DNA of 64,000 nt, from positions 1-64,000 of the IMG/VR virus record IMGVR_UViG_3300005253_000487; one strand, 5' to 3'. The stretch is from a virus. Below the pieces are notes generated by a model, which had not been told where the DNA came from, did not search any database, and saw only the letters and a list, made by a program, of their open reading frames with translations. The number at the start of each line of letters is the position of its first letter. Position 1 is the first letter of the stretch. This document shows, piece after piece, positions 3,904-18,097 of the stretch. The position numbers were made by a program, and so were the translations under genes.

Positions 3904-5451
3904 TTAGCCATTGGTAACCTCCACTGTAAAACCCTCATCATGGTAGAGTTGAATGCGTTTGCGTGCTGCCGTATGGAGGTACTTAGCGGCGCGGGCTAAG
4001 AGACGCTCGTGGCTCTTAAATGTGACCCGGTCCACAATGTCTACGAGCCTGAGGAACTCCTTGCCATCTGTGCGTCGCAGCCCACGGCCGATGCGTTGCA
4101 ATGTCTGCTTCGTGGAACCCTCCCCGCTAACGAATAGAAGGTCAGTGGTATGTCCAAGTCGATTGGTTCCGCGGTCTAGGATCTTAGTAACCACAAGGAT
4201 GTGAATGTCTCCACGTCGGAACTGCCGCAGAACGTCTCGGCGTTGCGCCGGAGATGTGGAGCCATCCAAGAACACTGCACCTTTAATGGCCCGTGTAACA
4301 GAGTGTCCATGTTCCACACGGTTGACGATGACAGCGGTAGGTGTGTTGGGGCGGATGAGAGAGGCGATGAAATCATGACGCGCATAGTTGTTCATGACGG
4401 CCTCTTCGTAAACCCACCGTCGGCGTGCGGGTCCACTAAGCTCCCACCACTTCTTCAAGCCTCCGGTCAGCATGGGTGTGACATCGTATTGGTGTAACGT
4501 GACAGTGGGTGTAGCACTTACGTTGCGCTCTATGAGATCAATGTTCTTGGCTGCGAGTAGGATGGGCCCCATTAAGACGTCGAGTCTGAGATCTTCATAG
4601 GAGTCGTTTGGGAAGGTGCCGGAGAAGCCCAGGCGCCAGCGTGATCCTTTAGTATTGCTAAGGATGCGACGCCACGTTGCGACGTCCGCCCTGTCTGCTT
4701 CGTCTAGCAGTACCATTCCATGCCTGCCGACCCACTTGCGCCATACCTTTGCAGTGTCCCCCGTTTTTGCTGCCAATCGTTTCGACAGTGTTGGGACCAT
4801 GGCAATGGAGACAAGGTCTTGGGGCGGACGTTTAATACCTTGCGACACGCTTGCGGGTGAGAGTGAGGTCCACTTGGTAACCTCGTCCATGAGTGCATCG
4901 AATACGGAGATGGTGTCGCATAGGATGAGGACGGGGACGCCGAGTTGTGCGGCGAAGTCTGCCAGCAGTGCAATCACCGCACCCTTGCCCGCGTTGGTGG
5001 CAAGGGCGAAGCGCCCCCATTCATATTCCACGGCCGCTTTGAAAGCGACACGTTGGTACGTCCCTTGTGGTTCCGGTAGCTGTGTTAAGGTGGGGTGGGT
5101 GGGCGTGCAGGTAGGTGGTTGATTGTCTATTGTAATTGTTAACGCCTTACTCATGCGTTCGAGAAGCCCTCGAGACCCCCGGAACTCCCACACCCCTGGG
5201 CGTAACTGACGGCAGTACTTCCCCGGTGTGTAGGTGCCGTCCCAGAATACTGCCGCTGCTTTCTTACGTGCGGACGCCTCAGTCATCCCTCCCTGTATTA
5301 ACCTTCCTACCATGCTAGAGAACTTGCGGAAGCGGGGTGTGAACTGTGCATCAGGTACGGCATGGCGTTGACTCTCACGCCAATCGTACAGTGCCTTCGG
5401 CCCCGTAACAACCATTTCCGCGTGGTTGATGAGGTGGGCAACGGCAGTCAC
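3904..5451 (-). CDS. Superfamily 2 DNA helicase (UvsW-like)
   Basis: ATNAGKG (motif I), LLDEAD (II), GFSGT (III), QRIGRGLR (VI). Confidence 0.9.
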   Translation of the reverse strand: MTAVAHLINHAEMVVTGPKALYDWRESQRHAVPDAQFTPRFRKFSSMVGRLIQGGMTEASARKKAAAVFWDGTYTPGKYCRQLRPGVWEFRGSRGLLERMSKALTITIDNQPPTCTPTHPTLTQLPEPQGTYQRVAFKAAVEYEWGRFALATNAGKGAVIALLADFAAQLGVPVLILCDTISVFDALMDEVTKWTSLSPASVSQGIKRPPQDLVSIAMVPTLSKRLAAKTGDTAKVWRKWVGRHGMVLLDEADRADVATWRRILSNTKGSRWRLGFSGTFPNDSYEDLRLDVLMGPILLAAKNIDLIERNVSATPTVTLHQYDVTPMLTGGLKKWWELSGPARRRWVYEEAVMNNYARHDFIASLIRPNTPTAVIVNRVEHGHSVTRAIKGAVFLDGSTSPAQRRDVLRQFRRGDIHILVVTKILDRGTNRLGHTTDLLFVSGEGSTKQTLQRIGRGLRRTDGKEFLRLVDIVDRVTFKSHERLLARAAKYLHTAARKRIQLYHDEGFTVEVTNG

Positions 5452-5870
5452 TTCTTAATCCTTACGCACTCTGCTTCGTGGGCATGATGCTTCTTGGCGC
5501 AGGCGTAGCACAATTGGTCTCCGCACTTGTGGCAAAGGAACGTGGCGTCCTTCCCGCATTTGCTTTTGTGTACGATTACTATGCAATCACAACCCATCGT
5601 CGTCCTCCTCTATGTAATCATCACTGGGATGGAGTGCAGCGTGCAGACGGCGGGGGTTCCACACCCGCTCTCGTCTCTCGAACAACGCAAGCTCATCCCG
5701 CCGGAAGAAATGCCTAGGCAGACCAACACAACGCACGTCAACTTTCCAATAGCGTTCTGTCATTGTGCCGACAACACCAAGGTCGCCTGCTGACAACTGG
5801 ACAAAGAGGGGGCTGTCTGGGCATGGAGTAATCAACACGACGTCCCACTTACGTAGTCTAGTGCGGTGCT

Positions 5871-6218
5871 TCATTTCATCCACCGTCGTTGGGTAGACAG
5901 CCCTTCCCCTTCCATTTCTTCTTCAGCGCTTATGTCGTCGACGATATTGATGGTATAGAGTTTGCCCGTTACTGGCTTGCGTGGTGGATGCTGCGGTTGG
6001 GTTTCGAAGCGTGTGTAACTACCAGGTCGTCTTACGCCTGTGGCTAGGAACTCACACTCGGCGCACGTTTGTCCGAACGTCTCAGGTACTGTGACGAAAC
6101 CTTCTCCAAGCCATTCATCGCAGATGGCCTTGTTGAGGTCCGCGGTGTAGTGGGCCTTACTCTGGAAGCCCCCACGGCTTCTCCATGCGACACGGACGAG
6201 GTGATCGGGAGTTGGCAT
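5871..6218 (-). CDS. Hypothetical protein with zinc-finger-like motif
   Basis: KAH...C...TCAEC; 115 aa. Confidence 0.5.
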   Translation of the reverse strand: MPTPDHLVRVAWRSRGGFQSKAHYTADLNKAICDEWLGEGFVTVPETFGQTCAECEFLATGVRRPGSYTRFETQPQHPPRKPVTGKLYTINIVDDISAEEEMEGEGLSTQRRWMK

Positions 6219-6243
6219 AGTGCCCTGCCTTGCAAGTGAGAAA

Positions 6244-6312
6244 GCCGATGACCAGGAATTGAACCTGGACGCTCTAGGGTCATGTGGTCCCTCGAGCCAT
6301 GCCTACATCGGC
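6244..6312 (-). ncRNA. tRNA-like RNA lacking a D-arm
   Basis: 7-bp GCCGAUG/CAUCGGC acceptor-like stem, U8-A9, canonical T-arm CCAGG-UUCAAUU-CCUGG, central GCUC.AGGG/CCCU.GAGC stem; intergenic. Confidence 0.5.
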
Positions 6313-6418
6313 CGCGCCCACAGTGTCTCCGCCGTCTCACTTGCTTGAGCCACCGTACACGACTTCGGCGCTTTGTGCCCTTGCCGGCGCGCCGCGTGCC
6401 GTTCTAATAGTCTGCCCG

Positions 6419-7057
6419 CTACGCCTTGCGGTAGCGTAGCACGTTAATGGGTAGTGTTGCTGGGTCCAACATACGTTCCGCAAGGTAGTCTGCTGTGAAT
6501 TGCCGAATGCGGTGTAGCGTACGATGCCATTCCGTGCGCGTTAACTTGAATGCGGTTCGGAGTTGCACATGGGATGGGCGGATGTGTTTGCTGCCCCGTT
6601 GCTTCAACCTTGCCTTGCGTCGTGCAGTGATGCGAAGGAGTTTGCAATAGCGTTCGTCCTGGGGCTGGAGCAAGTTCTCTGCCACGCGTCGTGCAAGCAT
6701 CCCTTCCATCACCTCGAGGGCGTTGAGGTAAGCGTCGAGGTCGAGCGCGTTGTTCCACGCCCCTTGTGGATCCTGTAGCATCTTGTCCGGGGGGGCTGCG
6801 GTGAGGGGGAAGTCCTCGCGGTGACGGGCGCCGGAGTAGCGCCAGCCCCCGCTCCAGTAAATCCACATGCATCGTTGCAACAGTGTCCGCGCAAGTGCAA
6901 ATGATTTCTTGTGGACAGAGCTGCGGTGGTAAGAGAACAGAGCTTCCTGTACTAGGTCGTCTACGTCAGCTGGTTGCTGTGTGATGCGTCGGGCGAGTGA
7001 GTGGGCGAGGACGTTCAATTGTTGCGGTGTTGGAGACGGTGATTTGATTGTGGGCAC
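6419..7057 (-). CDS. Sigma-70/ECF-like phage transcription factor
   Basis: Region-2-like LARRI...DVDDLVQEALFSY and a basic helical C-terminus. Confidence 0.6.
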   Translation of the reverse strand: MPTIKSPSPTPQQLNVLAHSLARRITQQPADVDDLVQEALFSYHRSSVHKKSFALARTLLQRCMWIYWSGGWRYSGARHREDFPLTAAPPDKMLQDPQGAWNNALDLDAYLNALEVMEGMLARRVAENLLQPQDERYCKLLRITARRKARLKQRGSKHIRPSHVQLRTAFKLTRTEWHRTLHRIRQFTADYLAERMLDPATLPINVLRYRKA

Positions 7058-7068
7058 GATGGAACTCC

Positions 7069-7503
7069 TTAAGGGTTAAAGATTATAACTTGCTTACTTA
7101 ATTGACGAGCGTATCTAACTGTTGCCCATGTTCCAGAACGCACCACCTCCCCCTCTTGTTTTGGTGCCGCTAACATGACGTCACAGGCGGCAGCCATGTC
7201 GCGGTTGCGTTGGAGGTATGGTCTGGGAGGCATGATACGTTGGGCTGGTACTGGACAGTAGGCGCGCTTTCTAGCATCACTAGGCGGGTGTAGTATGACG
7301 AGGTGCTCTAAGCCTGTCTCCTGTACTATGGTAAACATCTGTTCGTCTGCCATGATGCAATCGCCCAAGTGGATTGAGCGCAGTGCTGCGCGATACTCAA
7401 TTAGGTAGTTGGTGAGATCGAAACATTGACGAGTGGTTAGGTCCCGGTGTTGGGTGCCAGTGAAACTTATGTCTAATTTGTTGTGCATAATTTTGCTGTC
7501 CAT
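7069..7503 (-). CDS. SLOG superfamily (YspA/DprA-like) nucleotide-binding protein
   Basis: ISFTGT, HLGDCIMAD, RNRDM...D.MLAAP, SGTWATVRYAR. Confidence 0.8.
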   Translation of the reverse strand: MDSKIMHNKLDISFTGTQHRDLTTRQCFDLTNYLIEYRAALRSIHLGDCIMADEQMFTIVQETGLEHLVILHPPSDARKRAYCPVPAQRIMPPRPYLQRNRDMAAACDVMLAAPKQEGEVVRSGTWATVRYARQLSKQVIIFNP

Positions 7504-7508
7504 GCGAC

Positions 7509-7535
7509 AGTATATGCAGACTTACAAAGGCGCAA
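7509..7535 (-). promoter_or_regulatory. Candidate sigma70 promoter, likely leaderless transcript
   Basis: TTGCGC-N15-TATACT ending 5 nt before ATG 7503; spacer is short. Confidence 0.3.
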
Positions 7536-7578
7536 GGGTTTTACTCTAACCCAAAAATTCGTATCGTATAAGTAGCGC

Positions 7579-7600
7579 ATAGGAATGCTATAGGAATGCT
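7579..7600 (+). repeat. 11-bp direct repeat ATAGGAATGCT x2, candidate RHH operator
   Basis: Exact tandem copies in the divergent intergenic region just upstream of the RHH gene. Confidence 0.55.
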
Positions 7601-7623
7601 TGCTAAAAGGGGGAACAACAACT

Positions 7624-7797
7624 ATGGTGATGCCGAAGCTGCCACCTGGAGAACGGAGAAGCGAACCTGTGTTCGTGCTTCTTCGTCCACGTGAGTTGCA
7701 ACAGGTGGATAAGATTGCCGAGAAAGAAGGGAAGAGTCGCGCCCAGGTACTGCGCGAGAGCTTCCTCGATAGGCATACGCAGGTCGATGCGCCTTGA
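7624..7797 (+). CDS. Ribbon-helix-helix (CopG-like) regulator
   Basis: VFVLLRPRELQQVDKIAEKEGKSRAQVLRE pattern; AAGGGG RBS. Confidence 0.75.
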   Translation: MVMPKLPPGERRSEPVFVLLRPRELQQVDKIAEKEGKSRAQVLRESFLDRHTQVDAP

Positions 7798-8009
7798 GGC
7801 TCGTGCCCTTGCGTGTCGTAATTCTAATTGTGGTTGCGGCTGTGGCTCTGACCGTAGGTGGGATGCTGTTGATGCTATGGGGTGGCTACCAATTAGGATT
7901 GTCCGCACAACTTATGAGTAGGCAAGAGGAGTTGACTGAGGAGGCAATCACACTCGTCAATAGTGTTGATGAGGCTGTGCGTTGCTTCCTGGGAGATTGT
8001 CCGCCGTGA
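7794..8009 (+). CDS. Small membrane protein
   Basis: Long hydrophobic N-terminal segment. Confidence 0.55.
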   Translation: MRLVPLRVVILIVVAAVALTVGGMLLMLWGGYQLGLSAQLMSRQEELTEEAITLVNSVDEAVRCFLGDCPP

Positions 8010-8101
8010 GGTCATCAGCACACGAACCTTGCTAAAATGTCCGTGGACGCGTAGACTAAGACTGTTGCAGTATGGGGAAGCAGTTTCAATCGAAGGAGGG
8101 C

Positions 8102-8440
8102 ATGATGCGAAGAATGCTTGGCAGAGTTGTCATGCTTGTGGCCGTACTGATGCTCAGTGCGGGGCTTCCACGAGCAGGTCCCGACACTGATGTAGGGATC
8201 GAACAGTACATTACCCAGGCCCAGGACGCGCAATACACCTTCGGTGCGATCGTTCCTCCCGCCGTTGACCTACGTGTCACAGAACAATTCGTGGCGGGTG
8301 CGTCGTTGGCAGAATCAAGATCGCCTCTGGTGATAACGCGGACGCAACGCTACGTGGATACTGTGCACACAAACACCGCCACGGCGACGTCCCGCTTTAT
8401 ACACCGGACCGATAACGGCTGGCGAACTCTGCGGACTTAG
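8102..8440 (+). CDS. Secreted/membrane hypothetical protein
   Basis: AAGGAGG RBS; signal-peptide-like MMRRMLGRVVMLVAVLMLSAG. Confidence 0.6.
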   Translation: MMRRMLGRVVMLVAVLMLSAGLPRAGPDTDVGIEQYITQAQDAQYTFGAIVPPAVDLRVTEQFVAGASLAESRSPLVITRTQRYVDTVHTNTATATSRFIHRTDNGWRTLRT

Positions 8441-8474
8441 CATAGGCGCGTGAGTTAGGAACATCCTGCTCACT

Positions 8475-8514
8475 AAAAAAGGCCACCAACACATTGCGCG
8501 TTGGTGGCCTTTTT
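8475..8514. terminator. Bidirectional intrinsic terminator
   Basis: AAAAAA-GGCCACCAAC-loop-GTTGGTGGCC-TTTTT between convergent gene blocks. Confidence 0.85.
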
Positions 8515-8669
8515 GTAAGTTCGAGGGGGCCTGCTCCCCGCCGTCTAACTACGAGACGGGAAGCAAGGAGCAACCCTCCCCCTCTGGTGCCCGGAGTCCA
8601 CTTTCTAATGGAACGCCCGTTGACGCAGACCGCCTGGGTGGGCCATCCCATCCAGACACCATTGTCTAC

Positions 8670-9947
8670 CTACTCCTCTGCGGAAACAACTTCCCCGAAC
8701 GGCACTCTATCTTGTGCGTGGTATGTGGGCGTGACCCACAGTACCGGCACGTCCGGTGCCTGTTCCGCCGGAGGGAATGTACCATACAGGTCCGTAAGGT
8801 ACAGCACGCAGGCAGGCGGTTCGTCTAGCCCCTCCAGCGCTGCGAACACTGGACGGAAATCTGTGCCTCCTCCACCTGCTGCCTCCAGGACAACCTGCTC
8901 GCCCTGTTCGAACGTCTCTTCCTTCTGGAGTGCCGCATCGCAATACATGATGTGGATACGGCGGGGCCTCATTTCTTCTGCCACTGCTTGCACCTCCGCA
9001 CCAAACAACGCGAGGAGCGTAGCGTCTATCGATCCGCTTGTGTCAATACCAATTACAATTGGACCAAGCTCCCGACTGTAAAGGGACGGGAGATACAAAC
9101 CCAACGGCATGTATCTGCGGTTGGGCTGCTCCCAGGAGTAATCACTGTTCGTGATCTCCTGTACGAAGCGCCGCAGCACGGAGCGCCAATCAACGCGTGC
9201 TCTTGCCGCTTGCTCCGCGAGGCGCGCGAGTCCGCCGGGCAGCTTGCCCTGTCCCTCGGCAAGTGCGGCGGCCTGTTGCACCGCTTCCTTCCAATCTTCC
9301 TCCGTGGGTGTTTCCGTGTCGTCGTCTCCGTTTGCTGCCGGAGCGTCTCGAACCTCACCGCCGAAGGGATCTTCTTGTTCTTCCTGCTCTTGCTCATCCT
9401 GATCATCTTGCTGCTCGTCCTGGTCTTCGTTTCCATCCCCGTTACCCTTGCCACTGCCACCGGGTTGCGACTCGTCGTCGCTGTCTCCACTACCGTCTTC
9501 GTCCCCTTCGCCCTCGCCTTCCTTGGGCTGTGGTTTCTGTAAACGATTGTAGATCCATTCGGCGGACTTACCAACGTGGCTGGGTTCGAGTTCGTACAAC
9601 ACATTGTCCGGAAGCTGGAACGACGCGTCACGTAACACTGGATTCAGTGCACGGTCAGCAGCTTCGTTCCATTGCCCCGCCTCGCGCCCAGCACGCCGCC
9701 AAGGATGCCCAAGGACACAGTGTCCAACTTCATGGGCAGTCAATGCGACGCGGCGTGAGTGCGAAGGGAGACTGTTGATGTACGTGGGATTGAAGCCCAG
9801 CGTCTTGCCATCCACCCATGCGGTCTTGCACGATGGATCTTCTCTCAGCTTCAGCTTCAATGTCAACGTACCCCAGAACGGTTCTCCAAGGACGAGCGCC
9901 GTACGTGCGGCAACCATCCTCTTCATTGCTTCTGACTGTTGCTTCAT
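8670..9947 (-). CDS. DUF2201-type metallopeptidase / VWA domain protein
   Basis: HEVGH zinc motif, acidic linker, DTSGS MIDAS, GGGGTDF, YLTDLYG; start reassigned to ATG 9947 behind GGAGG. Confidence 0.9.
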   Translation of the reverse strand: MKQQSEAMKRMVAARTALVLGEPFWGTLTLKLKLREDPSCKTAWVDGKTLGFNPTYINSLPSHSRRVALTAHEVGHCVLGHPWRRAGREAGQWNEAADRALNPVLRDASFQLPDNVLYELEPSHVGKSAEWIYNRLQKPQPKEGEGEGDEDGSGDSDDESQPGGSGKGNGDGNEDQDEQQDDQDEQEQEEQEDPFGGEVRDAPAANGDDDTETPTEEDWKEAVQQAAALAEGQGKLPGGLARLAEQAARARVDWRSVLRRFVQEITNSDYSWEQPNRRYMPLGLYLPSLYSRELGPIVIGIDTSGSIDATLLALFGAEVQAVAEEMRPRRIHIMYCDAALQKEETFEQGEQVVLEAAGGGGTDFRPVFAALEGLDEPPACVLYLTDLYGTFPPAEQAPDVPVLWVTPTYHAQDRVPFGEVVSAEE

Positions 9948-9966
9948 CTTTGCCTCCTCGTAAAGT

Positions 9967-10040
9967 GTGGGTTGCCTCATCAGTGCATGGGTACCCAACC
10001 CATGCAGACCGGACACCAAGCGGTGCCCGGTTTCGGCTAG
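9967..10040 (-). ncRNA. Type II hammerhead ribozyme 1
   Basis: GCC-GAAA-stem III-GUC^ (cut 10007/10006)-UGCAUGGG/CCCAUGCA stem I-CUGAUGA-GGC; loop UGGGU can pair with 3' ACCCA. Confidence 0.93.
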
Positions 10041-10312
10041 CCGCGTAGTTCTTGCAGCTCTTGGATAGTTGGTATGTCTTCATCCCAACAACCAATGATG
10101 TTTTCGTCAGTGAAGCCTGCTGCCATCATGCTGACGAATAGACGCTTACGATTCTCTGGTGTTGGATCCTTCATATACCTTTCTAGCTCTACCATCATTG
10201 CGTCATCTGGTGCGGCGATGGCATTACCTAACGCCACTCCGAATGCGTAAGGAGTACGCTTGTGTGGGTGAGCAATCTGCTCCCGTACAATCTCCTCCGG
10301 CGTGTTTGCCAT
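10037..10312 (-). CDS. Hypothetical protein
   Basis: 91 aa, starts 1 nt after upstream stop; its UAG lies in the 5' end of ribozyme 1. Confidence 0.7.
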   Translation of the reverse strand: MANTPEEIVREQIAHPHKRTPYAFGVALGNAIAAPDDAMMVELERYMKDPTPENRKRLFVSMMAAGFTDENIIGCWDEDIPTIQELQELRG

Positions 10313-10313
10313 G

Positions 10314-11216
10314 TCAAGCTCCCTTCTTGGCAGGCTTCTTCTTCGGCGGAGTGTAGACGCCCTTCATGCTTGCCAAGATGGCGTCGGCCTTGCGTGCGGT
10401 GTCCTTGCGGAACTTCTCATCATCACGCAACGACTCCACGTCCAGGGTCGACAGGTCCAGTAGCACCTGCTTCCGTGCCTTCTCCAGCTTCGCGTCCCCG
10501 GTGAGGTTAAGGCGGCCAATGATCTCCGCCATCTCACCGACGCGTGCTATCATTGTCGGCCGCAGATACTTCCCATCACCCAACTTGGTCCGCAGGTCTG
10601 TCACTGTGTCGCCCAACCGCTGCCACACATCGCCCATGGCGTCTGCGACTGCCTGCTTGACTCTGTCTTCCACTCCACGTGTCATGGCCTTTAACTGCTC
10701 CTTGGGTAGAGTGACTCGAAAGTCATCCCCGGAAGGAACAGGACCGTACTGGATAGTGAAGTGGAACTTAGTCCGGACCTGGCTTGTGGTGGGGTAGTCT
10801 GAACGTTTATACATCTGCCCCAACCGTTCCTCTGCTGTCCGTACGAGCGTTGGATAGTCCCTGAGGAACTTCTCCAGCGCCGTCTCATACCTGGTCTGCA
10901 CTGTCCGCATCGCTTCGACATACTCGAAGTAATTGGCAGTAGGTAAGAGACGCCAGCCCGCGTCCTCCCAGGGCAAGGTATGTTTGTAGTGCGTTACCCT
11001 TGCGACCTGAGTGGCGTTGACGAGCATCGAGTGTGACGGAGCGTCGCCCCCGAACAGTCGTTTGTGGTAGCGTCCTGCACGATCGTTCTTGGCCATCTCC
11101 GTATTCACTTTGTCGGTGACCTCTGCGTCGTGCTTCCGGGCGCTCCACAAGCCGATCCACACGTTGACGAGCATTGCTCGCCCCAAGATAGATGTGGACT
11201 TCTTTGTTGTGGTCAT
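10314..11216 (-). CDS. DUF3150-like phage protein (commonly adjacent to AAA/VWA pairs)
   Basis: 300 aa, MLVNVWIGLWSARKHD...TLPW...RLLP...YP pattern; gene context. Confidence 0.6.
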   Translation of the reverse strand: MTTTKKSTSILGRAMLVNVWIGLWSARKHDAEVTDKVNTEMAKNDRAGRYHKRLFGGDAPSHSMLVNATQVARVTHYKHTLPWEDAGWRLLPTANYFEYVEAMRTVQTRYETALEKFLRDYPTLVRTAEERLGQMYKRSDYPTTSQVRTKFHFTIQYGPVPSGDDFRVTLPKEQLKAMTRGVEDRVKQAVADAMGDVWQRLGDTVTDLRTKLGDGKYLRPTMIARVGEMAEIIGRLNLTGDAKLEKARKQVLLDLSTLDVESLRDDEKFRKDTARKADAILASMKGVYTPPKKKPAKKGA

Positions 11217-11240
11217 GCTTGCCTCCTTGTGTAGTTCAGT

Positions 11241-11313
11241 GTGGGTTGCCTCATCAGTACGTGGGTTCCCATTCCACGTAGACCGCCCACGACGTGTGGG
11301 CGGTTTCGGCTAC
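11241..11313 (-). ncRNA. Type II hammerhead ribozyme 2
   Basis: GCC GAAA CCGCCCAC..GUGGGCG GUC^ UACGUGG..CCACGUA CUGAUGA GGC; cut 11281/11280. Confidence 0.93.
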
Positions 11314-11486
11314 CTCGCAATCATCTCCGCTTCCATCTTCTTCATGGCGTCGCTAAGTTGTTCCCACCAAGAACGTATTCCAAGGTGAGGGTCGCCAGTT
11401 AACTGGACGATGGTTGATGCGATAGCATGAATGCGTTTGACTTGGGCTTCCTGGTCCTGTAAAGACCATTGCTCTCGCCCAGCCAT
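11310..11486 (-). CDS. 58-aa hypothetical protein (absent from ORF track)
   Basis: TAATG overlap with AAA stop; MAGREQWSLQDQ...EMIAR then UAG within ribozyme 2. Confidence 0.65.
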   Translation of the reverse strand: MAGREQWSLQDQEAQVKRIHAIASTIVQLTGDPHLGIRSWWEQLSDAMKKMEAEMIAR

Positions 11487-12514
11487 TACGCCGTACCGGA
11501 GATGAGCTGTCCAAGCTCACCGGACATCAATCTGACAAACTCCGGGGTGTTAACCAACTCCGGGTTGTTGCGTTCCGCATCCTTGATCAACAGTGCAGCG
11601 AATTCGCCGTGTCCTTCCTCGACGAGCCTCTCGGCGTAACGCGCCACGCGGCCAAAGTTCTGCTCGTTGGCCTTGATGGCGAGCCCTGTCACTGTAGCAT
11701 ACAACGCTGACAGGTCTGTCGGGATGTCCTGTCCATCCGGATTGATTAAGATGGCGTCGATGCTGGGTAGCTGACGGAACATCCGTAAGAAGGCGCGCAA
11801 CTCTACCGAGGCGCCTTCACCTACGGCGCCCGCTAGTGCTTCACCTTCCAGTGTGTCAGGTAGCCCAAGCTCCAGGACGTGTCCAGCGTTGCTCCAGGTG
11901 CGCGGTAGCGGGCAGTTCGTCATGTCCGCTGTCGGTGTGAACTGGCACAGCAACTCTGGGCGGAACCGAAGGAATGCAATCAGCTCCGGCGGGATGTGCG
12001 TTTGCGTGAACGCCCATTGACACCAGTCGTCCAAGTCCTCAACCAACTCTACGATGGATATGAACCTACTCTTCACGGGCTCCAGTATCCCACTGACGTT
12101 CGCACGGTCCGTGCGCCGGTTCGTTGCTGCAATGAACGACACTACATCGGGCAGCCTGTGCCCGTTGATTTCACGCGCCAAGATTAACTGCATCTTGGCC
12201 GCCTGTACGGCGCCCGGTGCTTGACCAAGATCGTCCAGGAACCATACCGTGTCTACTGTTGCGGCAAGTGCTTCAGCGAACTGCCCGAACGGTAGGAACT
12301 GAGCGGTCTTCTTGTCCGCCGACGGCCAAGGAAGCCCCTTGGAGTCCGTCGGATCTTCCACCGCGGGGTGCGACAGTATCATCCGCGCACCTGCGGTGTC
12401 ACATGCCTGTGCCACTACGTCACTCTTACCTACGCCAGGCTTCCCAGTGATTAGCACTGGGTGACGCTTTGGAATGGCGAGTGCGAGGAACATGGCCAGT
12501 TGTGATGGTTTCAT
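11486..12514 (-). CDS. MoxR/CbbQ-like AAA+ ATPase
   Basis: GKPGVGKS Walker A, WFLDDL Walker B, AATNR, SRF, PRTW; start at ATG 12514 behind GGAGG. Confidence 0.9.
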   Translation of the reverse strand: MKPSQLAMFLALAIPKRHPVLITGKPGVGKSDVVAQACDTAGARMILSHPAVEDPTDSKGLPWPSADKKTAQFLPFGQFAEALAATVDTVWFLDDLGQAPGAVQAAKMQLILAREINGHRLPDVVSFIAATNRRTDRANVSGILEPVKSRFISIVELVEDLDDWCQWAFTQTHIPPELIAFLRFRPELLCQFTPTADMTNCPLPRTWSNAGHVLELGLPDTLEGEALAGAVGEGASVELRAFLRMFRQLPSIDAILINPDGQDIPTDLSALYATVTGLAIKANEQNFGRVARYAERLVEEGHGEFAALLIKDAERNNPELVNTPEFVRLMSGELGQLISGTA

Positions 12515-12533
12515 CTTTGCCTCCTTGTAGTGT

Positions 12534-12606
12534 GTGGGTTGCCTCATCAGTACGTGGATTCCCATTCCACGCAGACCGGATGCACAGTGCATCCGGTTTC
12601 GGCTAC
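12534..12606 (-). ncRNA. Type II hammerhead ribozyme 3
   Basis: Intact core; stem III CCGGAUGCAC/GUGCAUCCGG; cut 12574/12573. Confidence 0.93.
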
Positions 12607-13500
12607 TTACTTTGGTGGCCACATGTACGTGAACTCCGGGCGTCCATACCACGTGACGTAGTGTCCGAGGGCGTCCTCGATGTTCTTGCTTCGTGGTTTG
12701 GACATGCCGTCGTTGTTACGGAACCACCTCCAGAATTCAATCTTCCAATCCCACCATATCGAATCCTGTGGCGTGCACAGGTCGTCCAGGGTGACCTCAT
12801 ACTCATGCCCGTCTCGCCGGCACCGCATGAACTTCTTGCGCTCCGCGGGTGGGAGGCTAAGGAACATGAGCGACTGTTGCATACCGAAGAACAACTGGCC
12901 GCGCATTACATCCTCGTTCCAACACCTGGGTATCTCTTCCACAATGTCCTCGGACAACGTTAGCAGTGGGCAGACGGTGTGGAAGAATGTATCCTCACTA
13001 TCGCTTTGCCAGATGTCGTAGAACGCCATGTCAAACGTACCGGGTGTTCTGTCCTTGAGGTATTCGAATAGGTCCGCACAGACTACAGTGATCTTCCCAT
13101 CGTCATCAGGCAGATGTTGGTTGACTAGCTTGATGACCTCTGATGAGATCTCTACGACGGTGACCTGCTCCACGTCTGGGTTGGCTGCTAGGTTTGCCGC
13201 AGCATAGCCTAGCCCCAGTCCACCAACCAACACCGTGCCGTAATAGCCCTCGAGAATGTTGTTGGCTTGCGCTTGTTCCACGGGCTCGTCTGTCATCCAC
13301 ACCCCTTGGTCCTCTTGGACTAGTTGGTGGAAGCGCACCCGCTTGTCAAATTTGACAGCCTTACTCTGCTGGCCAAAGAGTGCCGTGCGTGCGGTGGCGG
13401 TGTGGAATTTGTGTCCCACCTTGAAGTGAAGATGCTTGATGCTGTAAGCACCTTCCACCCCTTCAGGGATGTCGAGGACGGGCCAATACTTCTGTTTCAT
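12607..13500 (-). CDS. Class I SAM-dependent methyltransferase (spermidine-synthase-like fold)
   Basis: VLVGGLGLG, VTVVEIS, ADLFEY, FDMAFYDIW. Confidence 0.8.
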   Translation of the reverse strand: MKQKYWPVLDIPEGVEGAYSIKHLHFKVGHKFHTATARTALFGQQSKAVKFDKRVRFHQLVQEDQGVWMTDEPVEQAQANNILEGYYGTVLVGGLGLGYAAANLAANPDVEQVTVVEISSEVIKLVNQHLPDDDGKITVVCADLFEYLKDRTPGTFDMAFYDIWQSDSEDTFFHTVCPLLTLSEDIVEEIPRCWNEDVMRGQLFFGMQQSLMFLSLPPAERKKFMRCRRDGHEYEVTLDDLCTPQDSIWWDWKIEFWRWFRNNDGMSKPRSKNIEDALGHYVTWYGRPEFTYMWPPK

Positions 13501-13520
13501 TGTTGCCTCCCTGTAGTGTG

Positions 13521-13593
13521 TTGGGTTGCCTCATCAGTACGTGGATACCCATTCCACGTAAACCGCCCATGGAGTGTGGACGGTTTCGGCTGC
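13521..13593 (-). ncRNA. Type II hammerhead ribozyme 4 (GUU site)
   Basis: Intact core; cleavage triplet GUU fits NUH; cut 13561/13560. Confidence 0.9.
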
Positions 13594-14436
13594 CTACTTC
13601 TTCCGGCGCGTGCTTTTCTTCTTCCGCCGCTTGTCCGCAGTGGGCGTGGCCTTCCTACGTGTCACCTTCTTCTCTTGGCGTGGTGCTGCGGCCGTGTGTT
13701 CTGTGACGTGCCCATCGCTATTGTTCTGGGCTACGACGCGTGCCCGCTCACCCTGTGCTTGCACGCGTGCTTCTTTGCGTGCTGCCCGTTCCTTAGCACT
13801 TGTCTCCCGTCGGCGCCAGCGTGAGCGCCCCAGGTCTGGGAAACGTACTGTGTGGTCTACGATCAAGTCCGCCCGCTCGTTGGCTTGAGCACGCACATAC
13901 TCCACACCTTCTGGATCAATTACAACGTCGTGTGACTGACCATGTACGTCCATCGTTGCGCCACTCCAACCCTCAGTGCAGCGGCTGGATGTATTGACGG
14001 GAACGTCTGCGTCACTAACCTGCGGAATGCCAGCCGCGCGCTGTGGACCCAACCTCTGTTCCAGTAACGCGAAGTAGGCTTCCTTACTACCTAGCACCAC
14101 GAAGAGTGCCTCACGGAGTGGACGGTTGCTGCTGAACCCTAAGCGGTCGCGCTCAGCACCCATGGTCGTCTCTCCCGCTTGTAGACGGGGGAGGACTTCG
14201 CGTGCTTCCTGCAAGAGCGTCTCATCAAGTTGCTTACCGCCTTTGGGCTTCGCAGCTTTCTTCTTGTCTGCCTTCGCCGTGTCATTGACCCGCTTGTCCG
14301 CGTCCGCCTTCGCTGTGTCATTGACCCGCTTATCCGCCTTAGCTTGCGCGGACTTAGCGGGCGCCTTCTTCTTCCGTTTAGGGAAGGCGTTCTTGGCTGT
14401 AGCTTTCTTAGTACTCTTTCTCGGTCTTGCCATCAT
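13594..14436 (-). CDS. Lys/Arg/Ala-rich putative nucleic-acid-binding protein
   Basis: Histone-H1-like termini; duplicated ADKRVNDTAKAD. Confidence 0.7.
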   Translation of the reverse strand: MMARPRKSTKKATAKNAFPKRKKKAPAKSAQAKADKRVNDTAKADADKRVNDTAKADKKKAAKPKGGKQLDETLLQEAREVLPRLQAGETTMGAERDRLGFSSNRPLREALFVVLGSKEAYFALLEQRLGPQRAAGIPQVSDADVPVNTSSRCTEGWSGATMDVHGQSHDVVIDPEGVEYVRAQANERADLIVDHTVRFPDLGRSRWRRRETSAKERAARKEARVQAQGERARVVAQNNSDGHVTEHTAAAPRQEKKVTRRKATPTADKRRKKKSTRRKK

Positions 14437-14451
14437 TGCCTCCTTGTGTTT

Positions 14452-14523
14452 GTGGGTTGCCTCATCAGTACGTGGATACCCATTCCACGCAGACCATCCA
14501 CTCCGGTGGATGGTTTCAGCTAC
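14452..14523 (-). ncRNA. Type II hammerhead ribozyme 5
   Basis: Intact core; stem III CCAUCCAC/GUGGAUGG; G-U at base of stem II; cut 14492/14491. Confidence 0.9.
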
Positions 14524-14525
14524 TA

Positions 14526-14843
14526 CTACCTAGGTGGTGCGTCGACCGTCCGTCGGTACGTCCCTTCGCACAGGTAGCTTGAGTGCGAGATGCGCTGGAG
14601 CCTCAGCCGCAGTGCCTCAACGTCCTTGCACGCCAGCAACAGTTCTAGATCCTTTGCCGTCATGCATTGTGCAAGGACGCGAGCACCAATGCGGACATCC
14701 AGTAAGTCTACGTCTTCCGCCCGTGCCAACTTGCCGTCCGTGAAGCAATGGATGTTCCCGGTGCTGTGTTCCAGGATGCGTCCAATCATCTTCACGTACC
14801 TGTTCTTGACGATGACGACATCGCCTTCTTCGAAGACGCGCAT
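14526..14843 (-). CDS. Hypothetical protein
   Basis: TGATG overlap start MRVFEEGDVVIV; ends TAG TAG TAG running into ribozyme 5. Confidence 0.65.
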   Translation of the reverse strand: MRVFEEGDVVIVKNRYVKMIGRILEHSTGNIHCFTDGKLARAEDVDLLDVRIGARVLAQCMTAKDLELLLACKDVEALRLRLQRISHSSYLCEGTYRRTVDAPPR

Positions 14844-15064
14844 CACCCACCACCCTTCGGTCCTTCGGTCTTGCAAGCGCGTCCGCAGAAGATGTGATTG
14901 TCGTGCGCGAGGATTGCCGTACCCGCTGGCAGATTCTTGCCACACGCTGCACACTTGCGATCGACTTGCGCCCGGAACATTGCCTGTCTACGCTCGACTT
15001 CTTCGATGTTCGCTAGGAGCCCGCGTGCTCGCCCGGACTCAGTACCGCTTGTTCGTTTGTTCAT
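14843..15064 (-). CDS. Small zinc-finger-like protein
   Basis: GGAGG RBS; CAACG...FCGRAC. Confidence 0.65.
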   Translation of the reverse strand: MNKRTSGTESGRARGLLANIEEVERRQAMFRAQVDRKCAACGKNLPAGTAILAHDNHIFCGRACKTEGPKGGG

Positions 15065-15080
15065 GTGTGCCTCCTTGTGC

Positions 15081-15158
15081 GTGGGTTGCCTCATCAGTAC
15101 ATGGATTCCCATTCCATGCAGACCGGACAGCGTAACACGGCTGCCCGGTTTCGGCTAC
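15081..15158 (-). ncRNA. Type II hammerhead ribozyme 6
   Basis: Intact core; stem III CCGGGCAGC/GCUGUCCGG; cut 15121/15120. Confidence 0.93.
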
Positions 15159-15697
15159 TACGGTCCGCCTATCTGCGGTCCGCTTATCTGGTGGACGTTC
15201 TGCTCGTGCGCCTGTCGCATGAGTTCTTGCAGCACTTCAATCGTTTCGCTTGCGTGCGTCTCCACCTCGCCCCAGTCGACGTCGACGACCAGTATGTCGA
15301 TGAGGCCCGCAACGCGTTGCTCCGCGTCGTTGACTGTGAGGATGGCCTTGTCCACTTCGTCGGACCCATCGTCCCATTCTGAGAGGATGCTGAAGAGTGT
15401 GTAAAGCTCATCTGGTAGCTCGTCACGCGCCGCAGTGTCCAACTTGTCTGCAAACTTGGCTACCTTGCGGAGCTTGTTGAAGTTTACCGTGCCGTTAGCG
15501 ATGCACGCCTTTTGCACACGGTCCAAAATCTTCTGGTAGGCGTCGCAACTCATCCTCACCGTTGTCGTGGTACAGCCCCCGCTGTCGTCGCACGCTTGTA
15601 TCATGCGCCTGTGTCGCACTATCAGTGCCTGCATCGCACGAATCGTTGCTGCCCGTAGCTTCCTGTTCCGCGCCGGGATCTTCGATGGACGTTTCAT
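15158..15697 (-). CDS. Hypothetical helical protein
   Basis: 179 aa with GGAGG RBS. Confidence 0.7.
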   Translation of the reverse strand: MKRPSKIPARNRKLRAATIRAMQALIVRHRRMIQACDDSGGCTTTTVRMSCDAYQKILDRVQKACIANGTVNFNKLRKVAKFADKLDTAARDELPDELYTLFSILSEWDDGSDEVDKAILTVNDAEQRVAGLIDILVVDVDWGEVETHASETIEVLQELMRQAHEQNVHQISGPQIGGP

Positions 15698-15720
15698 TCT
15701 TGCCTCCCTGTAGTGGTGTT

Positions 15721-15793
15721 GTGGGTTACCTCGTCAGTACGTGGGTACCCAACCCATGCAGACCGGATGCACTGTGCACCCGGTTTCGGCTAC
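15721..15793 (-). ncRNA. Type II hammerhead ribozyme 7
   Basis: Core CUGACGA (variation only at the free N7 position); cut 15761/15760. Confidence 0.92.
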
Positions 15794-16416
15794 TGCCGGT
15801 CCAACGGGTACTGGAACTTCTCCAACACTACTGCCCATGCTGCTGCTGTCTGCTGCTCGATGATGTTGTGCACTGGGCTAGTGGAGTACGAAGGGGAACG
15901 CGTGGCGCGTACAACTTGCTCCAACGCTTCGACGCGGATCTTTTCATTCATCTCTTCCGCTGTGTCCCCATCCTTCCTGAACTGTGCGATGTACTGTAGC
16001 ACACCTCGGCACACGGTACCACTTGCGGCGCGCCTTATCACGTCCATGCTCGAGCCGAACCCGTAAGTCATGTCCGCTTGTGGCGCGTCCACTTGCTCTA
16101 GCAAGCGTGCCGTCCACTTCCGTATCTCCTTCTCACAGTAGCCAACTTCACGCTCCAAGTCTTCCACTCTGTGTACCCACCGCTCTGCTACTGTGGCAAT
16201 GTACTTGAAGTGGAGTTGCGTGCGCGTCTTGTTGTCGAACCCAATGAGATACTGCCCTTCCCCCAGGATCTTCTCTTCCCTGGTGAAGGCTTCCAACAAC
16301 GCCTTCTGTGTTCCATACTGCCACGGCGGATGTAAGTCCACGCGTGCCATGTTGGGTGTGCCGTCCGGCATCGCTTCGGCCTGGACGTCATGCTGCTGGT
16401 GTAATGTGTAACGCAT
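15790..16416 (-). CDS. Hypothetical protein, first gene of the ribozyme operon
   Basis: ATG 16416 behind GGGAGG; 208 aa. Confidence 0.7.
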   Translation of the reverse strand: MRYTLHQQHDVQAEAMPDGTPNMARVDLHPPWQYGTQKALLEAFTREEKILGEGQYLIGFDNKTRTQLHFKYIATVAERWVHRVEDLEREVGYCEKEIRKWTARLLEQVDAPQADMTYGFGSSMDVIRRAASGTVCRGVLQYIAQFRKDGDTAEEMNEKIRVEALEQVVRATRSPSYSTSPVHNIIEQQTAAAWAVVLEKFQYPLDRQ

Positions 16417-16437
16417 TCTTGCCTCCCTGTAGTGTGT

Positions 16438-16530
16438 GTGGGTTGCCTCATCAGTACGTGGGTACCCAACCCACGCAGACGTAACACGCATCCGCTAGGC
16501 AAGCGGTTGAGCGCGTGCTACGTTTCAGCT
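16438..16530 (-). ncRNA. Type II hammerhead ribozyme 8 (leader copy, extended stem III)
   Basis: GCU GAAA CGUAGCACGCG...UGCGUGUUAC GUC^ UGCGUGGG/CCCACGUA CUGAUGA GGC; cut 16478/16477. Confidence 0.92.
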
Positions 16531-17048
16531 TTGAAACTTTACAAGGAGGAGGCATACTAGATGCGCCGCCGTATCCCGTCTGTCTGCAATCTTGTGCCCG
16601 TCGTCCACGTCTCAATACGTACGAGCTGTGAACGCCGTGCACGCCGCAAGCACTTAGCGGAGGGGGTCGGTTGCTGTCGCTGGCTGAACGCCCTTAACGC
16701 GCATCTAGTTTCTGTTCGACTTCCGCGTCCCATTGTTGTGCGTGCTGCACACCCACCTTCCGTCCAGCCACTTAGCACGTCCTCGGGCTCCCGTTCCCTT
16801 AAGCATTCCGCTGGCGCTCTAACTTCCCCGTCCATCCACGCGCTACAACTTCTGTGTACCCCCGCGCTGACTGTGCTGTCTGCGTCGTCTATGGATCCGG
16901 GGTCGCAGTTTCTAACTGCATCGGCAATGCTGCCATCCCCGTAGTGCGCGTCCACGTAGCGCACCCTCCAACATCCACCCCTAACTACATGCTACTACAC
17001 CTACACTTACAATCTACGACACGCAACCCAAGGACGCAAGTGTTTTGC

Positions 17049-17201
17049 AAGTGCTTATATAGCAACCACTTACAGCGTCGCTCCCGTTGGATCGGTCGAA
17101 AAAGGGGAGCTTTTAAGCGATGCTATAAGTGCTTATATAGCAACCACTTAGCTATGCTTTACTCAGGGAAGGCACGTAAGTCCTTTGTTTCGTCCCATTT
17201 A
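17049..17201. repeat. Three (T)AAGT-N15-AYTTA pseudo-palindromes; two are identical 24-mers
   Basis: AAGTGCTTATATAGCAACCACTTA at 17049-17072 and 17127-17150; TAAGT-N15-ATTTA at 17177-17201. Confidence 0.75.
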
Positions 17202-17296
17202 CCCGATCGCTTGCGGTGCTGCACTGTAGCGTCAAGCGGGGTGACGCTTTTGACACGCTTGCGTTGCACTTGTATGACGCCGTATTGTGCGCGGAC

Positions 17297-18097
17297 ATGC
17301 CGAAGCAGACAGTAAAGAAGAAACGGCGCTCGAGTAAAGGGCGCAAGCATCATCCACACACTTGTGGTCCAAAGTGTAGACACAAGTGTGGTGACGTTGG
17401 TGGGCGCACGCAGAGTGGTAGGCCTTGTAGGCACCTCGGTGGTAACGGTGTGGAGGGCAAGGTGAAGGGCGTGTGGGCGCTGTGCTGGGATCACGATCCG
17501 GATAACACTGCACCCGCACCAACACAAGAGCAGGCATTCGAAGGTGGGCTGACGGGGAAGGAAGCTCTCTTCGTGTTCTACTATCCGGGGAGCGCCAATT
17601 GCAATGCGACGGAGGCGGCTAAGCTGGCGGGCTACACCGGCAGCCGCGCCACATTGCAAGCGACGGGGGCGAAGCTGATGACGAAGCCCAAGATTAAGGC
17701 AGCCATCCTCAAACGCTTCGATGAACTCTCGGCACCAGGCGAGGAGATCATTGCACGCATGACGGCGGATGCGCGGGGGAGTATGCTGCCGCTAGTGAAG
17801 TTTGACGAGAAGGGACGCCCCCAGGTTCACCTCACAGCGGAACTCCTCTTAGAGTTTGGCACGCTTATCAAAACAATAGACTGCGACCCGGAGACAGGGT
17901 ACATCCGCAAGCTGACGCTTAACGATGGACAGGCAGCACGAAGGGACTTGGCTAAGATACGCAAGCTCATGAGTGATGCACCGGAGGTCAACATCCTCAA
18001 TCTCCAGGACCTCTCGGACGATGAGCTGGCGAAGAGGTTAGCAACGCTCGCCGCACGCCTGCGCCCTAATCCACAGCATGAGTTGAATGGGGCATGA
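17297..18097 (+). CDS. terS: Terminase small subunit
   Basis: FVFYY...NATEAAKLAGY...GAKLMTKPKIKAAI HTH; directly upstream of terL. Confidence 0.85.
   Translation: MPKQTVKKKRRSSKGRKHHPHTCGPKCRHKCGDVGGRTQSGRPCRHLGGNGVEGKVKGVWALCWDHDPDNTAPAPTQEQAFEGGLTGKEALFVFYYPGSANCNATEAAKLAGYTGSRATLQATGAKLMTKPKIKAAILKRFDELSAPGEEIIARMTADARGSMLPLVKFDEKGRPQVHLTAELLLEFGTLIKTIDCDPETGYIRKLTLNDGQAARRDLAKIRKLMSDAPEVNILNLQDLSDDELAKRLATLAARLRPNPQHELNGA

Follow-up and report, generated by a model that had tools for sequence, protein, structure and literature searches.

Eight type II hammerhead ribozymes at the gene-unit boundaries of a phage operon

The window analyzed in this study is a stretch of 64,000 nucleotides (nt), positions 1 to 64,000 of the virus record IMGVR_UViG_3300005253_000487 of IMG/VR, a linear record of 88 kb with an estimated completeness of 83%. 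On the minus strand of the window, at 9966-16530, eight hammerhead ribozymes of type II stand at the boundaries of an operon that encodes, among others, a methyltransferase-like protein, a MoxR-like AAA+ ATPase, a DUF3150 protein and a VWA-like protein. The terminase, portal and head genes are harbored on the opposite strand, which identifies it as a tailed phage, and the DNA of this phage is present in marine-sediment metagenomes. Among the named phage genomes of INPHARED, a blastn search with the 6.7-kb region gave no match.

A scan of the whole window against Rfam at the gathering thresholds disclosed Hammerhead_II (RF02276, gathering score 37 bits) as the only family, six times and always on the minus strand, and a permissive cmscan run over 9500-17500 brought the number of minus-strand matches to eight, the two further ones lying just below the gathering score. 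The same eight copies were grouped independently by a repeat finder, with spacings of 1274, 1293, 987, 931, 629, 640 and 717 nt, and no hammerhead match beyond these eight was obtained in the full 88-kb record. An earlier note on this DNA, made from its letters alone, had read eight type II hammerheads at these positions and had predicted where each 3' cleavage product starts. All eight elements were recovered with the Rfam model, which the note had itself named as a check, and the predicted product starts coincide with those determined here (Table 1), for which the register was corrected by hand in four copies.

In every copy the order of the segments is A-GCY-GAAA, stem III, GUH, stem I and CUGANGA-GGY-AACCCA, and the catalytic core is complete in all eight of them, as the segments CUGA(U/C)GA, GAAA and GU(C/U) provide C3, U4, G5, A6, N7, G8 and A9, then G12, A13 and A14, the pair A15.1-U16.1, and an H17 that is never G. 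The cmscan alignments displayed the type II topology, in which stem II is open while loops close stems I and III, and they bore out the description of the motif in the earlier note, including its statement that the core varies only at N7, which is C in copy 7, and at H17, which is U in copy 4. The 5' core is invariant across the eight copies except for a wobble-compatible C/U in stem II, where G-U wobbles occur in copies 5, 7 and 8. Compared with RF02276, the core, the open stem II topology and the pseudoknot match, and the deviations are found in copy 7, which combines N7=C and a stem II G-U wobble with one A-C mismatch in stem I, and in copy 8, which carries a 31-nt insertion in stem III.

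The pairing pattern was evaluated in the seven alignable copies, copy 8 being outside the alignment. Paired cells amounted to 98.2%, against 24-41% when the partners were slid, and both sides had changed in eight pairs, six of which belong to the nine pairs of stem III; none of the 500 shuffles reached the covariation score. This agrees with the earlier observation that stem III differs from copy to copy and yet always pairs. Stem I covaries between genomes, as it reads GCGUGG/CCACGY in the window and GCACAGG/CCUGUGC in the sister contigs described below. The complementarity between UGGG of loop I and CCCA of the 3' tail, also noted earlier, is present in 8/8 copies, and a fifth pseudoknot pair, U-A, is possible in five of them; the pseudoknot is invariant in the seven aligned copies and shows no covariation within the window. 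The canonical three-way junction is exactly the minimum-energy fold in five of the eight copies, and in a sixth it is obtained with a stem III that reaches slightly into the core. Mean pairwise identity within the window is 0.65 for the 5' half, which contains stem III, and 0.85 for the 3' half. Because the core is perfectly conserved beside a drifting stem III, selection for catalysis in this phage is suggested. All eight elements have complete cores and are genuine hammerhead ribozymes of type II.

The hammerheads are part of a cassette of about 100 nt, which runs from a stop codon through GCY-GAAA, the hairpin of stem III, GUH (predicted cut after H), the hairpin of stem I, CUGANGA-GGY, the AACCCA tail complementary to loop I and a CA-rich spacer to A(A/G)GGAGGCA, 5 nt and the AUG. 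This ribosome-binding site lies about 5 nt before the AUG in all eight genes that follow a hammerhead, and the predicted distance from cut to AUG is 55-64 nt in every copy, with stem I beginning at the first nt of the predicted 3' product. Where no hammerhead stands before a gene, its translation is coupled to that of the preceding one. The upstream stop overlaps the first two nt of the ribozyme in three copies, among them hammerhead 7, whose first two nt come from the UAG of the upstream gene; in the four remaining copies with a gene before them, the stop is 0-5 nt away on the 5' side. In-frame UAG runs occur at two stop-ribozyme junctions, with three such codons just before hammerhead 5.

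The operon is closed by a strong intrinsic terminator at 8514-8475, which could act in both directions as it has a run of A on its 5' side, and beyond which a convergent plus-strand gene is found. Since the minus strand from 17000 to 8514 contains no terminator-like site and a strong one stands at 8514-8475, the region is best read as a single transcription unit, and with this terminator the last unit would measure about 1531 nt. The unit sizes of the earlier note, including about 1530 nt for the last, are consistent with the spacing of the copies and the position of the terminator. Upstream of hammerhead 8 lies a purine-rich leader (16531-17040) that is apparently non-coding: the open reading frames (ORFs) at 16557-16964 on the minus and 16561-16944 on the plus strand were rejected as genes, as both display flat G+C content (GC) by codon position, which sets them apart from all the real genes of this region. 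The leader was also rejected as a structured RNA (z-score +0.23, no Rfam match), and no homologue of it was detected in the fetched loci. Further upstream, in an AT-richer divergent region between the hammerhead and terminase operons, two perfect 24-nt copies (17049-17072 and 17127-17150) sit 78 nt apart with 5-nt inverted ends, AAGTG...CACTT, where none are expected by chance. These repeats could be operators or phage-specific promoters.

Table 1. Features of the hammerhead operon in the window, listed in the direction of transcription (aa, amino acids; E, expectation value; dG, free energy; R1, our own covariance model)
Feature	Positions	Strand	Evidence and remarks
Purine-rich leader, apparently non-coding	16531..17040 (upstream end approximate)	-	Flat GC by codon position, extreme skew
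Anti-Shine-Dalgarno stretch CCUCCUUGUA, an inverted copy of the ribosome-binding-site module immediately before hammerhead 8	16540..16549	-	Pairs with the gA ribosome-binding site 16422-16431 in the minimum-energy fold of 16405-16600, in silico
Hammerhead 8, first in transcript, type II, long branched stem III	16437..16530	-	RF02276 32.8 bits, E 1e-3; R1 76.3 bits; core intact; 3' product start 16477
Unit 1, gene gA, 208 aa, no family	15790..16416	-	Shine-Dalgarno GGGAGGCA 5 nt before AUG; no PHROG match
Hammerhead 7	15720..15791	-	RF02276 33.3 bits, E 8e-4; R1 89.8 bits; 3' product start 15760
Unit 2, gene gB, 179 aa, no family	15158..15697	-	ORF
Hammerhead 6	15080..15156	-	RF02276 41.8 bits; minimum-energy fold is the three-way junction; 3' product start 15120
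Unit 3, genes gC (73 aa, 14843-15064) and gD (105 aa, 14526-14843)	14526..15064	-	AUGA overlap, translationally coupled
Hammerhead 5	14451..14521	-	RF02276 44.8 bits; 3' product start 14491
Unit 4, gene gE, 280 aa, lysine-rich	13594..14436	-	ORF
Hammerhead 4, H17=U	13520..13591	-	RF02276 48.9 bits; 3' product start 13560
Unit 5, gene gF, S-adenosylmethionine (SAM)-dependent methyltransferase-like, 297 aa	12607..13500	-	phrog_15480 3.9e-17; weak Pfam methyltransferase and spermine-synthase matches
Hammerhead 3	12533..12604	-	RF02276 41.7 bits; minimum-energy fold is the hammerhead fold; 3' product start 12573
Unit 6, MoxR-like AAA+ ATPase (342 aa, 11486-12514) and coupled 58-aa ORF (11310-11486)	11310..12514	-	phrog_1297 1e-66
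Hammerhead 2	11240..11311	-	RF02276 51.4 bits; 3' product start 11280; overlaps UAG stop of the 58-aa ORF
Unit 7, DUF3150 protein (300 aa, 10314-11216) and coupled 91-aa ORF (10037-10312)	10037..11216	-	PF11348 7e-6
Hammerhead 1, last in transcript	9966..10038	-	RF02276 45.5 bits; 3' product start 10006; overlaps UAG stop of the 91-aa ORF
Unit 8, DUF2201 metallopeptidase-like and VWA-like protein, 425 aa	8670..9947	-	PF13203 2e-52, PF09967 2e-26
Intrinsic terminator, long G+C-rich hairpin (core arms 10 nt) and U6	8475..8514	-	dG -32.6 kcal/mol, z -7.3

With reference to the genes themselves, close relatives of gF and gA were not found in IMG/VR. The gene gE contains an internal tandem repeat of 36 nt at 14266-14337, 92% identical, which encodes a repeated segment rich in lysine, alanine and aspartate. 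Between the last gene and the terminator, about 150 nt (8515-8669) remain on the minus strand, where an 84-aa ORF (8397-8651) is of doubtful coding value. The trio of MoxR-like ATPase, DUF3150 and DUF2201/VWA genes (8670-12514 in the window) is a widely conserved phage module, seen in about 75 IMG/VR loci, and in most phages its genes are separated by short gaps. More than 2000 homologues of the ATPase were obtained, the closest of which (P0002-P0004) are 70-72% identical. From IMG/VR, 80 loci with an ATPase 46-66% identical to that of the window were sampled together with 10 kb on either side. When a further ATPase relative, L028, is included, the DUF3150 gene is also present in 76 loci and the VWA gene in 73, with the gene order kept. 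One locus, L030 (ATPase 64% identical), harbors about 30 transfer RNA (tRNA) genes and a transfer-messenger RNA gene at 4160-8112, upstream of the ATPase module, and the window has no tRNA genes.

We consider it likely that the eight ribozymes are active and that they divide a single operon transcript into a leader and eight messages, each hairpin-capped and provided with a standard leader, and self-processing of one long transcript appears to be the best-supported reading of the locus. Such a transcript would probably start in the divergent region near 17040-17150, end at the terminator and cut itself during synthesis into a leader of about 0.5 kb, which hammerhead 8 would remove, and eight mono- or bicistronic messenger RNAs (mRNAs) with predicted lengths of 717, 640, 629, 931, 987, 1293, 1274 and about 1531 nt. 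The cut, placed 3' of H17, would part stem III from stem I, and the products would be joined only by stem II and the pseudoknot until release; as stem II has only 3 base pairs (bp), they should separate at once, which would make the cut effectively irreversible. Each mRNA would carry the same 55-64-nt 5' untranslated region (UTR), starting with a 5'-OH and base-paired from its first nt in the stem I hairpin, and each gene unit would be translated from a standard leader independent of its context, an insulating effect. The RNA upstream of the cut would stop 1 nt beyond the stem III hairpin and bear a terminal 2',3'-cyclic phosphate. The 5'-end-dependent pathways of the ribonucleases (RNases) E and J require a single-stranded 5'-monophosphate end, and 3' exonucleases and poly(A) polymerase require a free single-stranded 3'-OH. 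Given these requirements, both ends of the processed messages should be protected, and with hairpin caps at either end each message may decay independently. The formation of circular mRNAs by a phage RtcB ligase was also considered and set aside, because no RtcB is encoded in the 88-kb record; an RtcB of the host might still act. Perreault et al. (2011, PMC3088659) looked for RNA circles and found none.

The earlier note had named only isolated copies of this ribozyme in bacteria and phages and knew of no described array as regular as this one, and the novelty so implied is contradicted by the literature (PMC3088659, PMC6155905) as well as by the dense arrays of the sister contigs and of a further contig, L025, described below. 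Prophages in which multiple hammerheads flank individual genes or small groups of genes were reported by Perreault et al. (2011), who proposed that long phage transcripts are processed into operon-length or gene-length mRNAs, described the type II pseudoknot, and demonstrated that triple prophage arrangements cleave 2-kb polycistronic RNAs in vitro and in Escherichia coli (PMC3088659). The clustered pattern in prophages is restated in a 2017 review (PMC6155905), three type II hammerheads were found to cleave in vivo in Desulfovibrio vulgaris (PMC8782182), and the biological role of hammerheads in bacteria and phages is still called open (PMC6155905, PMC6765202). As in the cases of Perreault et al. 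(2011), several coding-strand hammerheads in the window bracket genes, mostly of unknown function, in a phage operon, and they are of type II with a pseudoknot between loop I and the 3' tail and a stem II of 2-3 bp; eight copies on the same strand delimit eight units of one or two genes. Unlike those cases, the window harbors eight copies in 6.6 kb, all of one homogenized subtype and each fused to a standard ribosome-binding site, and every unit of a terminator-bounded operon is preceded by a ribozyme; the published tested sets comprise three, and cleavage is here predicted from the sequence. Our literature search returned no paper on larger hammerhead arrays. The layout has thus been known in phages since 2011 and the window is a large and regular example of it, not a new kind of system.

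Two further systems resemble the array in the way they would work. Early transcripts of phage T7, as reported by Dunn and Studier, are said to be cut by RNase III at structured intercistronic sites into mRNAs with protective hairpin ends. The likeness is a functional analogy only, since in T7 a host protein cuts double-stranded sites and leaves a 5'-phosphate and a 3'-OH, whereas the RNA of the window would cut itself and leave a 5'-OH and a 2',3'-cyclic phosphate. Synthetic ribozyme insulators of the RiboJ kind were reportedly described by Lou et al. in 2012, and RiboJ itself is an engineered hammerhead from the sTRSV satellite RNA, reported as type III, with an added hairpin and used singly behind promoters. 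It resembles the cassette in function only: a ribozyme directly upstream of the ribosome-binding site removes the upstream context and leaves a fixed 5' UTR that starts with a hairpin. The window differs from it as a natural type II array inside an operon. With RiboJ, protein was raised 2-10 fold and transcript about 2 fold (PMC6206723).

Cassettes related to those of the window were located by a metagenome scan for the 16-nt word formed by the 3' core and tail, which gave a small sample of short contigs. In L201, whose ATPase, DUF3150 and VWA proteins are 69%, 72% and 58% identical to those of the window, elements stand before the ATPase gene, in the gap between the ATPase and DUF3150 genes, after the DUF3150 gene and before the VWA gene, that is, at the junctions of hammerheads 3, 2 and 1 with one extra, and in L110 hammerheads flank both sides of a 58% identical VWA homologue. 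Since these cassettes sit at the orthologous junctions of the ATPase, DUF3150 and VWA genes in contigs whose proteins are 58-72% identical to the window's, the conservation supports the self-processing reading. Elsewhere the gene cassettes come in a different order: six elements in L120 bracket homologues of gA (35%) and gE (49%), gB-gD being missing from the interval, and in L193 a methyltransferase homologue (54%) lies downstream of the DUF3150 gene. The contigs L120, L154 and L201 hold 4-6 cassettes each, L198 and L115 have a cassette beside ATPase and VWA or DUF3150 homologues that are only 27-40% identical, and L163, a 1.7-kb piece of a 90,792-bp contig, contains one intact hammerhead. 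Besides the window (8/8), intact 5' cores were found in L227 (3/3), L110 (2/2), L198 (2/2), L115 (2/2) and L123 (1/2). Our R1 model also picked up divergent copies in L184 and in L025, a 12.8-kb IMG/VR contig with eight matches within 4.3 kb (7402-11682). The latter array has the same arrangement of hammerhead and ribosome-binding site, each copy being followed by AAGGAGG and a start codon; unlike the window, it runs among unrelated small genes, and its copies have diverged, with loop I/tail pseudoknots that covary between them.

Many of the sister copies lack the 5' catalytic strand. According to the model alignments, the GAAA positions read CAAA, ACAA, AACA or -ACA, or are deleted, G12 is lost and the 5' strand of stem II no longer pairs, and these degenerate copies are not recognized by Rfam. 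What they retain is stem III, with compensatory changes, GUH, stem I, CUGAUGAGGCAACCCA, the pseudoknot tail and the ribosome-binding site. Since G12 serves as general base in the hammerhead reaction, copies that have lost it are probably inactive. A search of the sister loci for other ribozyme classes gave no match at an E of 1 or less, and the idea that core-dead copies might work as permuted type III hammerheads, using the GAAA of AUGAAA start regions, was rejected because inspection by eye showed no pairing between the stem III partners. Cassettes are mostly core-dead in L120, L154 and L201, against eight intact ones in the window. The stem I sequences are more alike within a genome than between genomes, with identities of 0.79 and 0.64 over nine contigs, a difference that none of 2000 label shuffles reached, and the two halves of the window copies group the copies differently (r = -0.14 to -0.33). 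Such within-genome likeness and discordance between halves are the pattern expected of gene conversion or recombination among copies.

Several observations weigh against the self-processing of one long transcript. Copies 7 and 8 are about 4 bits short of the RF02276 gathering score, with E values that refer to 8 kb, and in the pseudoknot-free minimum-energy folds of both, the 5' strand of stem I forms a competing helix with the 3' tail. The scan for a sigma-70 consensus gave fewer matches than shuffled sequence and nothing convincing upstream of hammerhead 8, and the run search for the window sequence returned four marine-sediment runs, all of DNA and no RNA run. The argument on message stability is built on the RNA-decay rules of E. 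coli, which may differ from those of the host. At the junctions that carry hammerheads in the window, our own covariance model detected none in the 80 ATPase relatives, where the single hammerhead lies about 2 kb upstream of the ATPase gene of L105, and the Rfam scan of seven loci, including the six closest relatives, found no ribozyme of any class; the three-gene module therefore needs no hammerheads. The layout, which the earlier note had proposed to look for in related phage contigs, is thus present in the sister contigs, many of whose cassettes are core-dead, and absent from these relatives. Intact 5' cores number only 1/5 in L154, 0/4 in L201, 0/6 in L120 and 0/2 in L193, and, judged from these alignments, much of the cassette appears to be maintained without catalysis. 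The dead cassettes of the sister phages weaken the idea that cleavage is the whole function of the cassette, and they lead to the view that the cassette is mainly an RNA structure, in which two hairpins and a standard pseudoknotted 5' UTR with its ribosome-binding site set translation and block nucleases while cleavage is optional. We regard this as unlikely. It would account for the hairpins, GUH, 3' core, tail and ribosome-binding site that persist without G12 and the 5' strand of stem II, for the blindness of Rfam to such copies, and for the higher conservation of the 3' half within the window; however, all eight window copies keep every catalytic nt beside a fast-drifting stem III, as expected of selection on catalysis, and the dead copies might be recent losses whose decay is still to come. 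It also counts against a mainly structural cassette that CUGANGA and GUH are not known to serve anything but the hammerhead fold.

The repeats might instead be chiefly recombination modules, or a selfishly spreading repeat, that provide about 60 nt of near-identical sequence at every gene boundary, through which cassettes could be acquired, dropped or rearranged, the ribozyme activity being incidental. The genome-specific stem I and the discordant halves speak for this, and so do the direct passage from the gA to the gE homologue in L120, the displaced methyltransferase gene in L193, and the absence of the cassette from relatives with a 46-66% identical ATPase while it is present beside the much more distant homologues of L198 and L115. 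It nevertheless leaves unexplained why the core is kept in 8/8 copies and why the elements are placed so exactly, on the coding strand between stop codon and ribosome-binding site, and as the roles are not exclusive and the contigs few and short, we hold recombination as the chief function to be quite improbable. Least probable, and in our estimate only a slim chance, is that cleavage is conditional, with ribosomes that end at the UAG gating the folding and hammerhead 8 gated by the anti-Shine-Dalgarno stretch and an alternative hairpin, in such a way that processing depends on translation or on the physiological state. The close packing of stop codon and ribozyme suits this proposal, since a terminating ribosome would cover the 5' strand of stem II and GAAA, and two pairings occur in the fold of 16405-16600, one of CCUCCUUGUA with the ribosome-binding site of gA and one of GUUUCA with the UGAAAC of the hammerhead 8 core, the latter a hairpin (16522-16549 region) that could sequester the GAAA in silico. 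Against it, this fold exists in silico with a z-score of just -2.2, and the tight packing may be genome economy. Self-processing by active ribozymes remains the reading we prefer.

What goes beyond the known systems are the 80 relatives that are free of hammerheads at these junctions, the core-dead cassettes at orthologous positions, and the homogenization of the 5'-UTR half within genomes together with the reordering of the gene cassettes. A broader proposal, which we offer tentatively and consider possible but less than even in its chances, is that the unit of selection is the whole cassette of about 100 nt, a recombining boundary module homogenized within each genome, in which self-cleavage is a switchable accessory. 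Such a module would comprise the hairpin that closes one message at its 3' end, the 5' UTR of the following message with its hairpin and pseudoknot, and the ribosome-binding site. The operon is in any case a clean test bed for the role of hammerheads, with eight intact ribozymes of one subtype, defined ends and predictable fragments, and its cassette is a natural counterpart of synthetic ribozyme insulators. The natural pairing of active and dead cassettes at the same junctions allows cleavage to be separated from RNA structure. If the cassette is indeed such a module, a clade of marine-sediment phages would use it to plug early genes in, out and around, it would work even without its catalytic strand, as in L201 and L120, and the sister phages would represent natural 'on' and 'off' versions of it.

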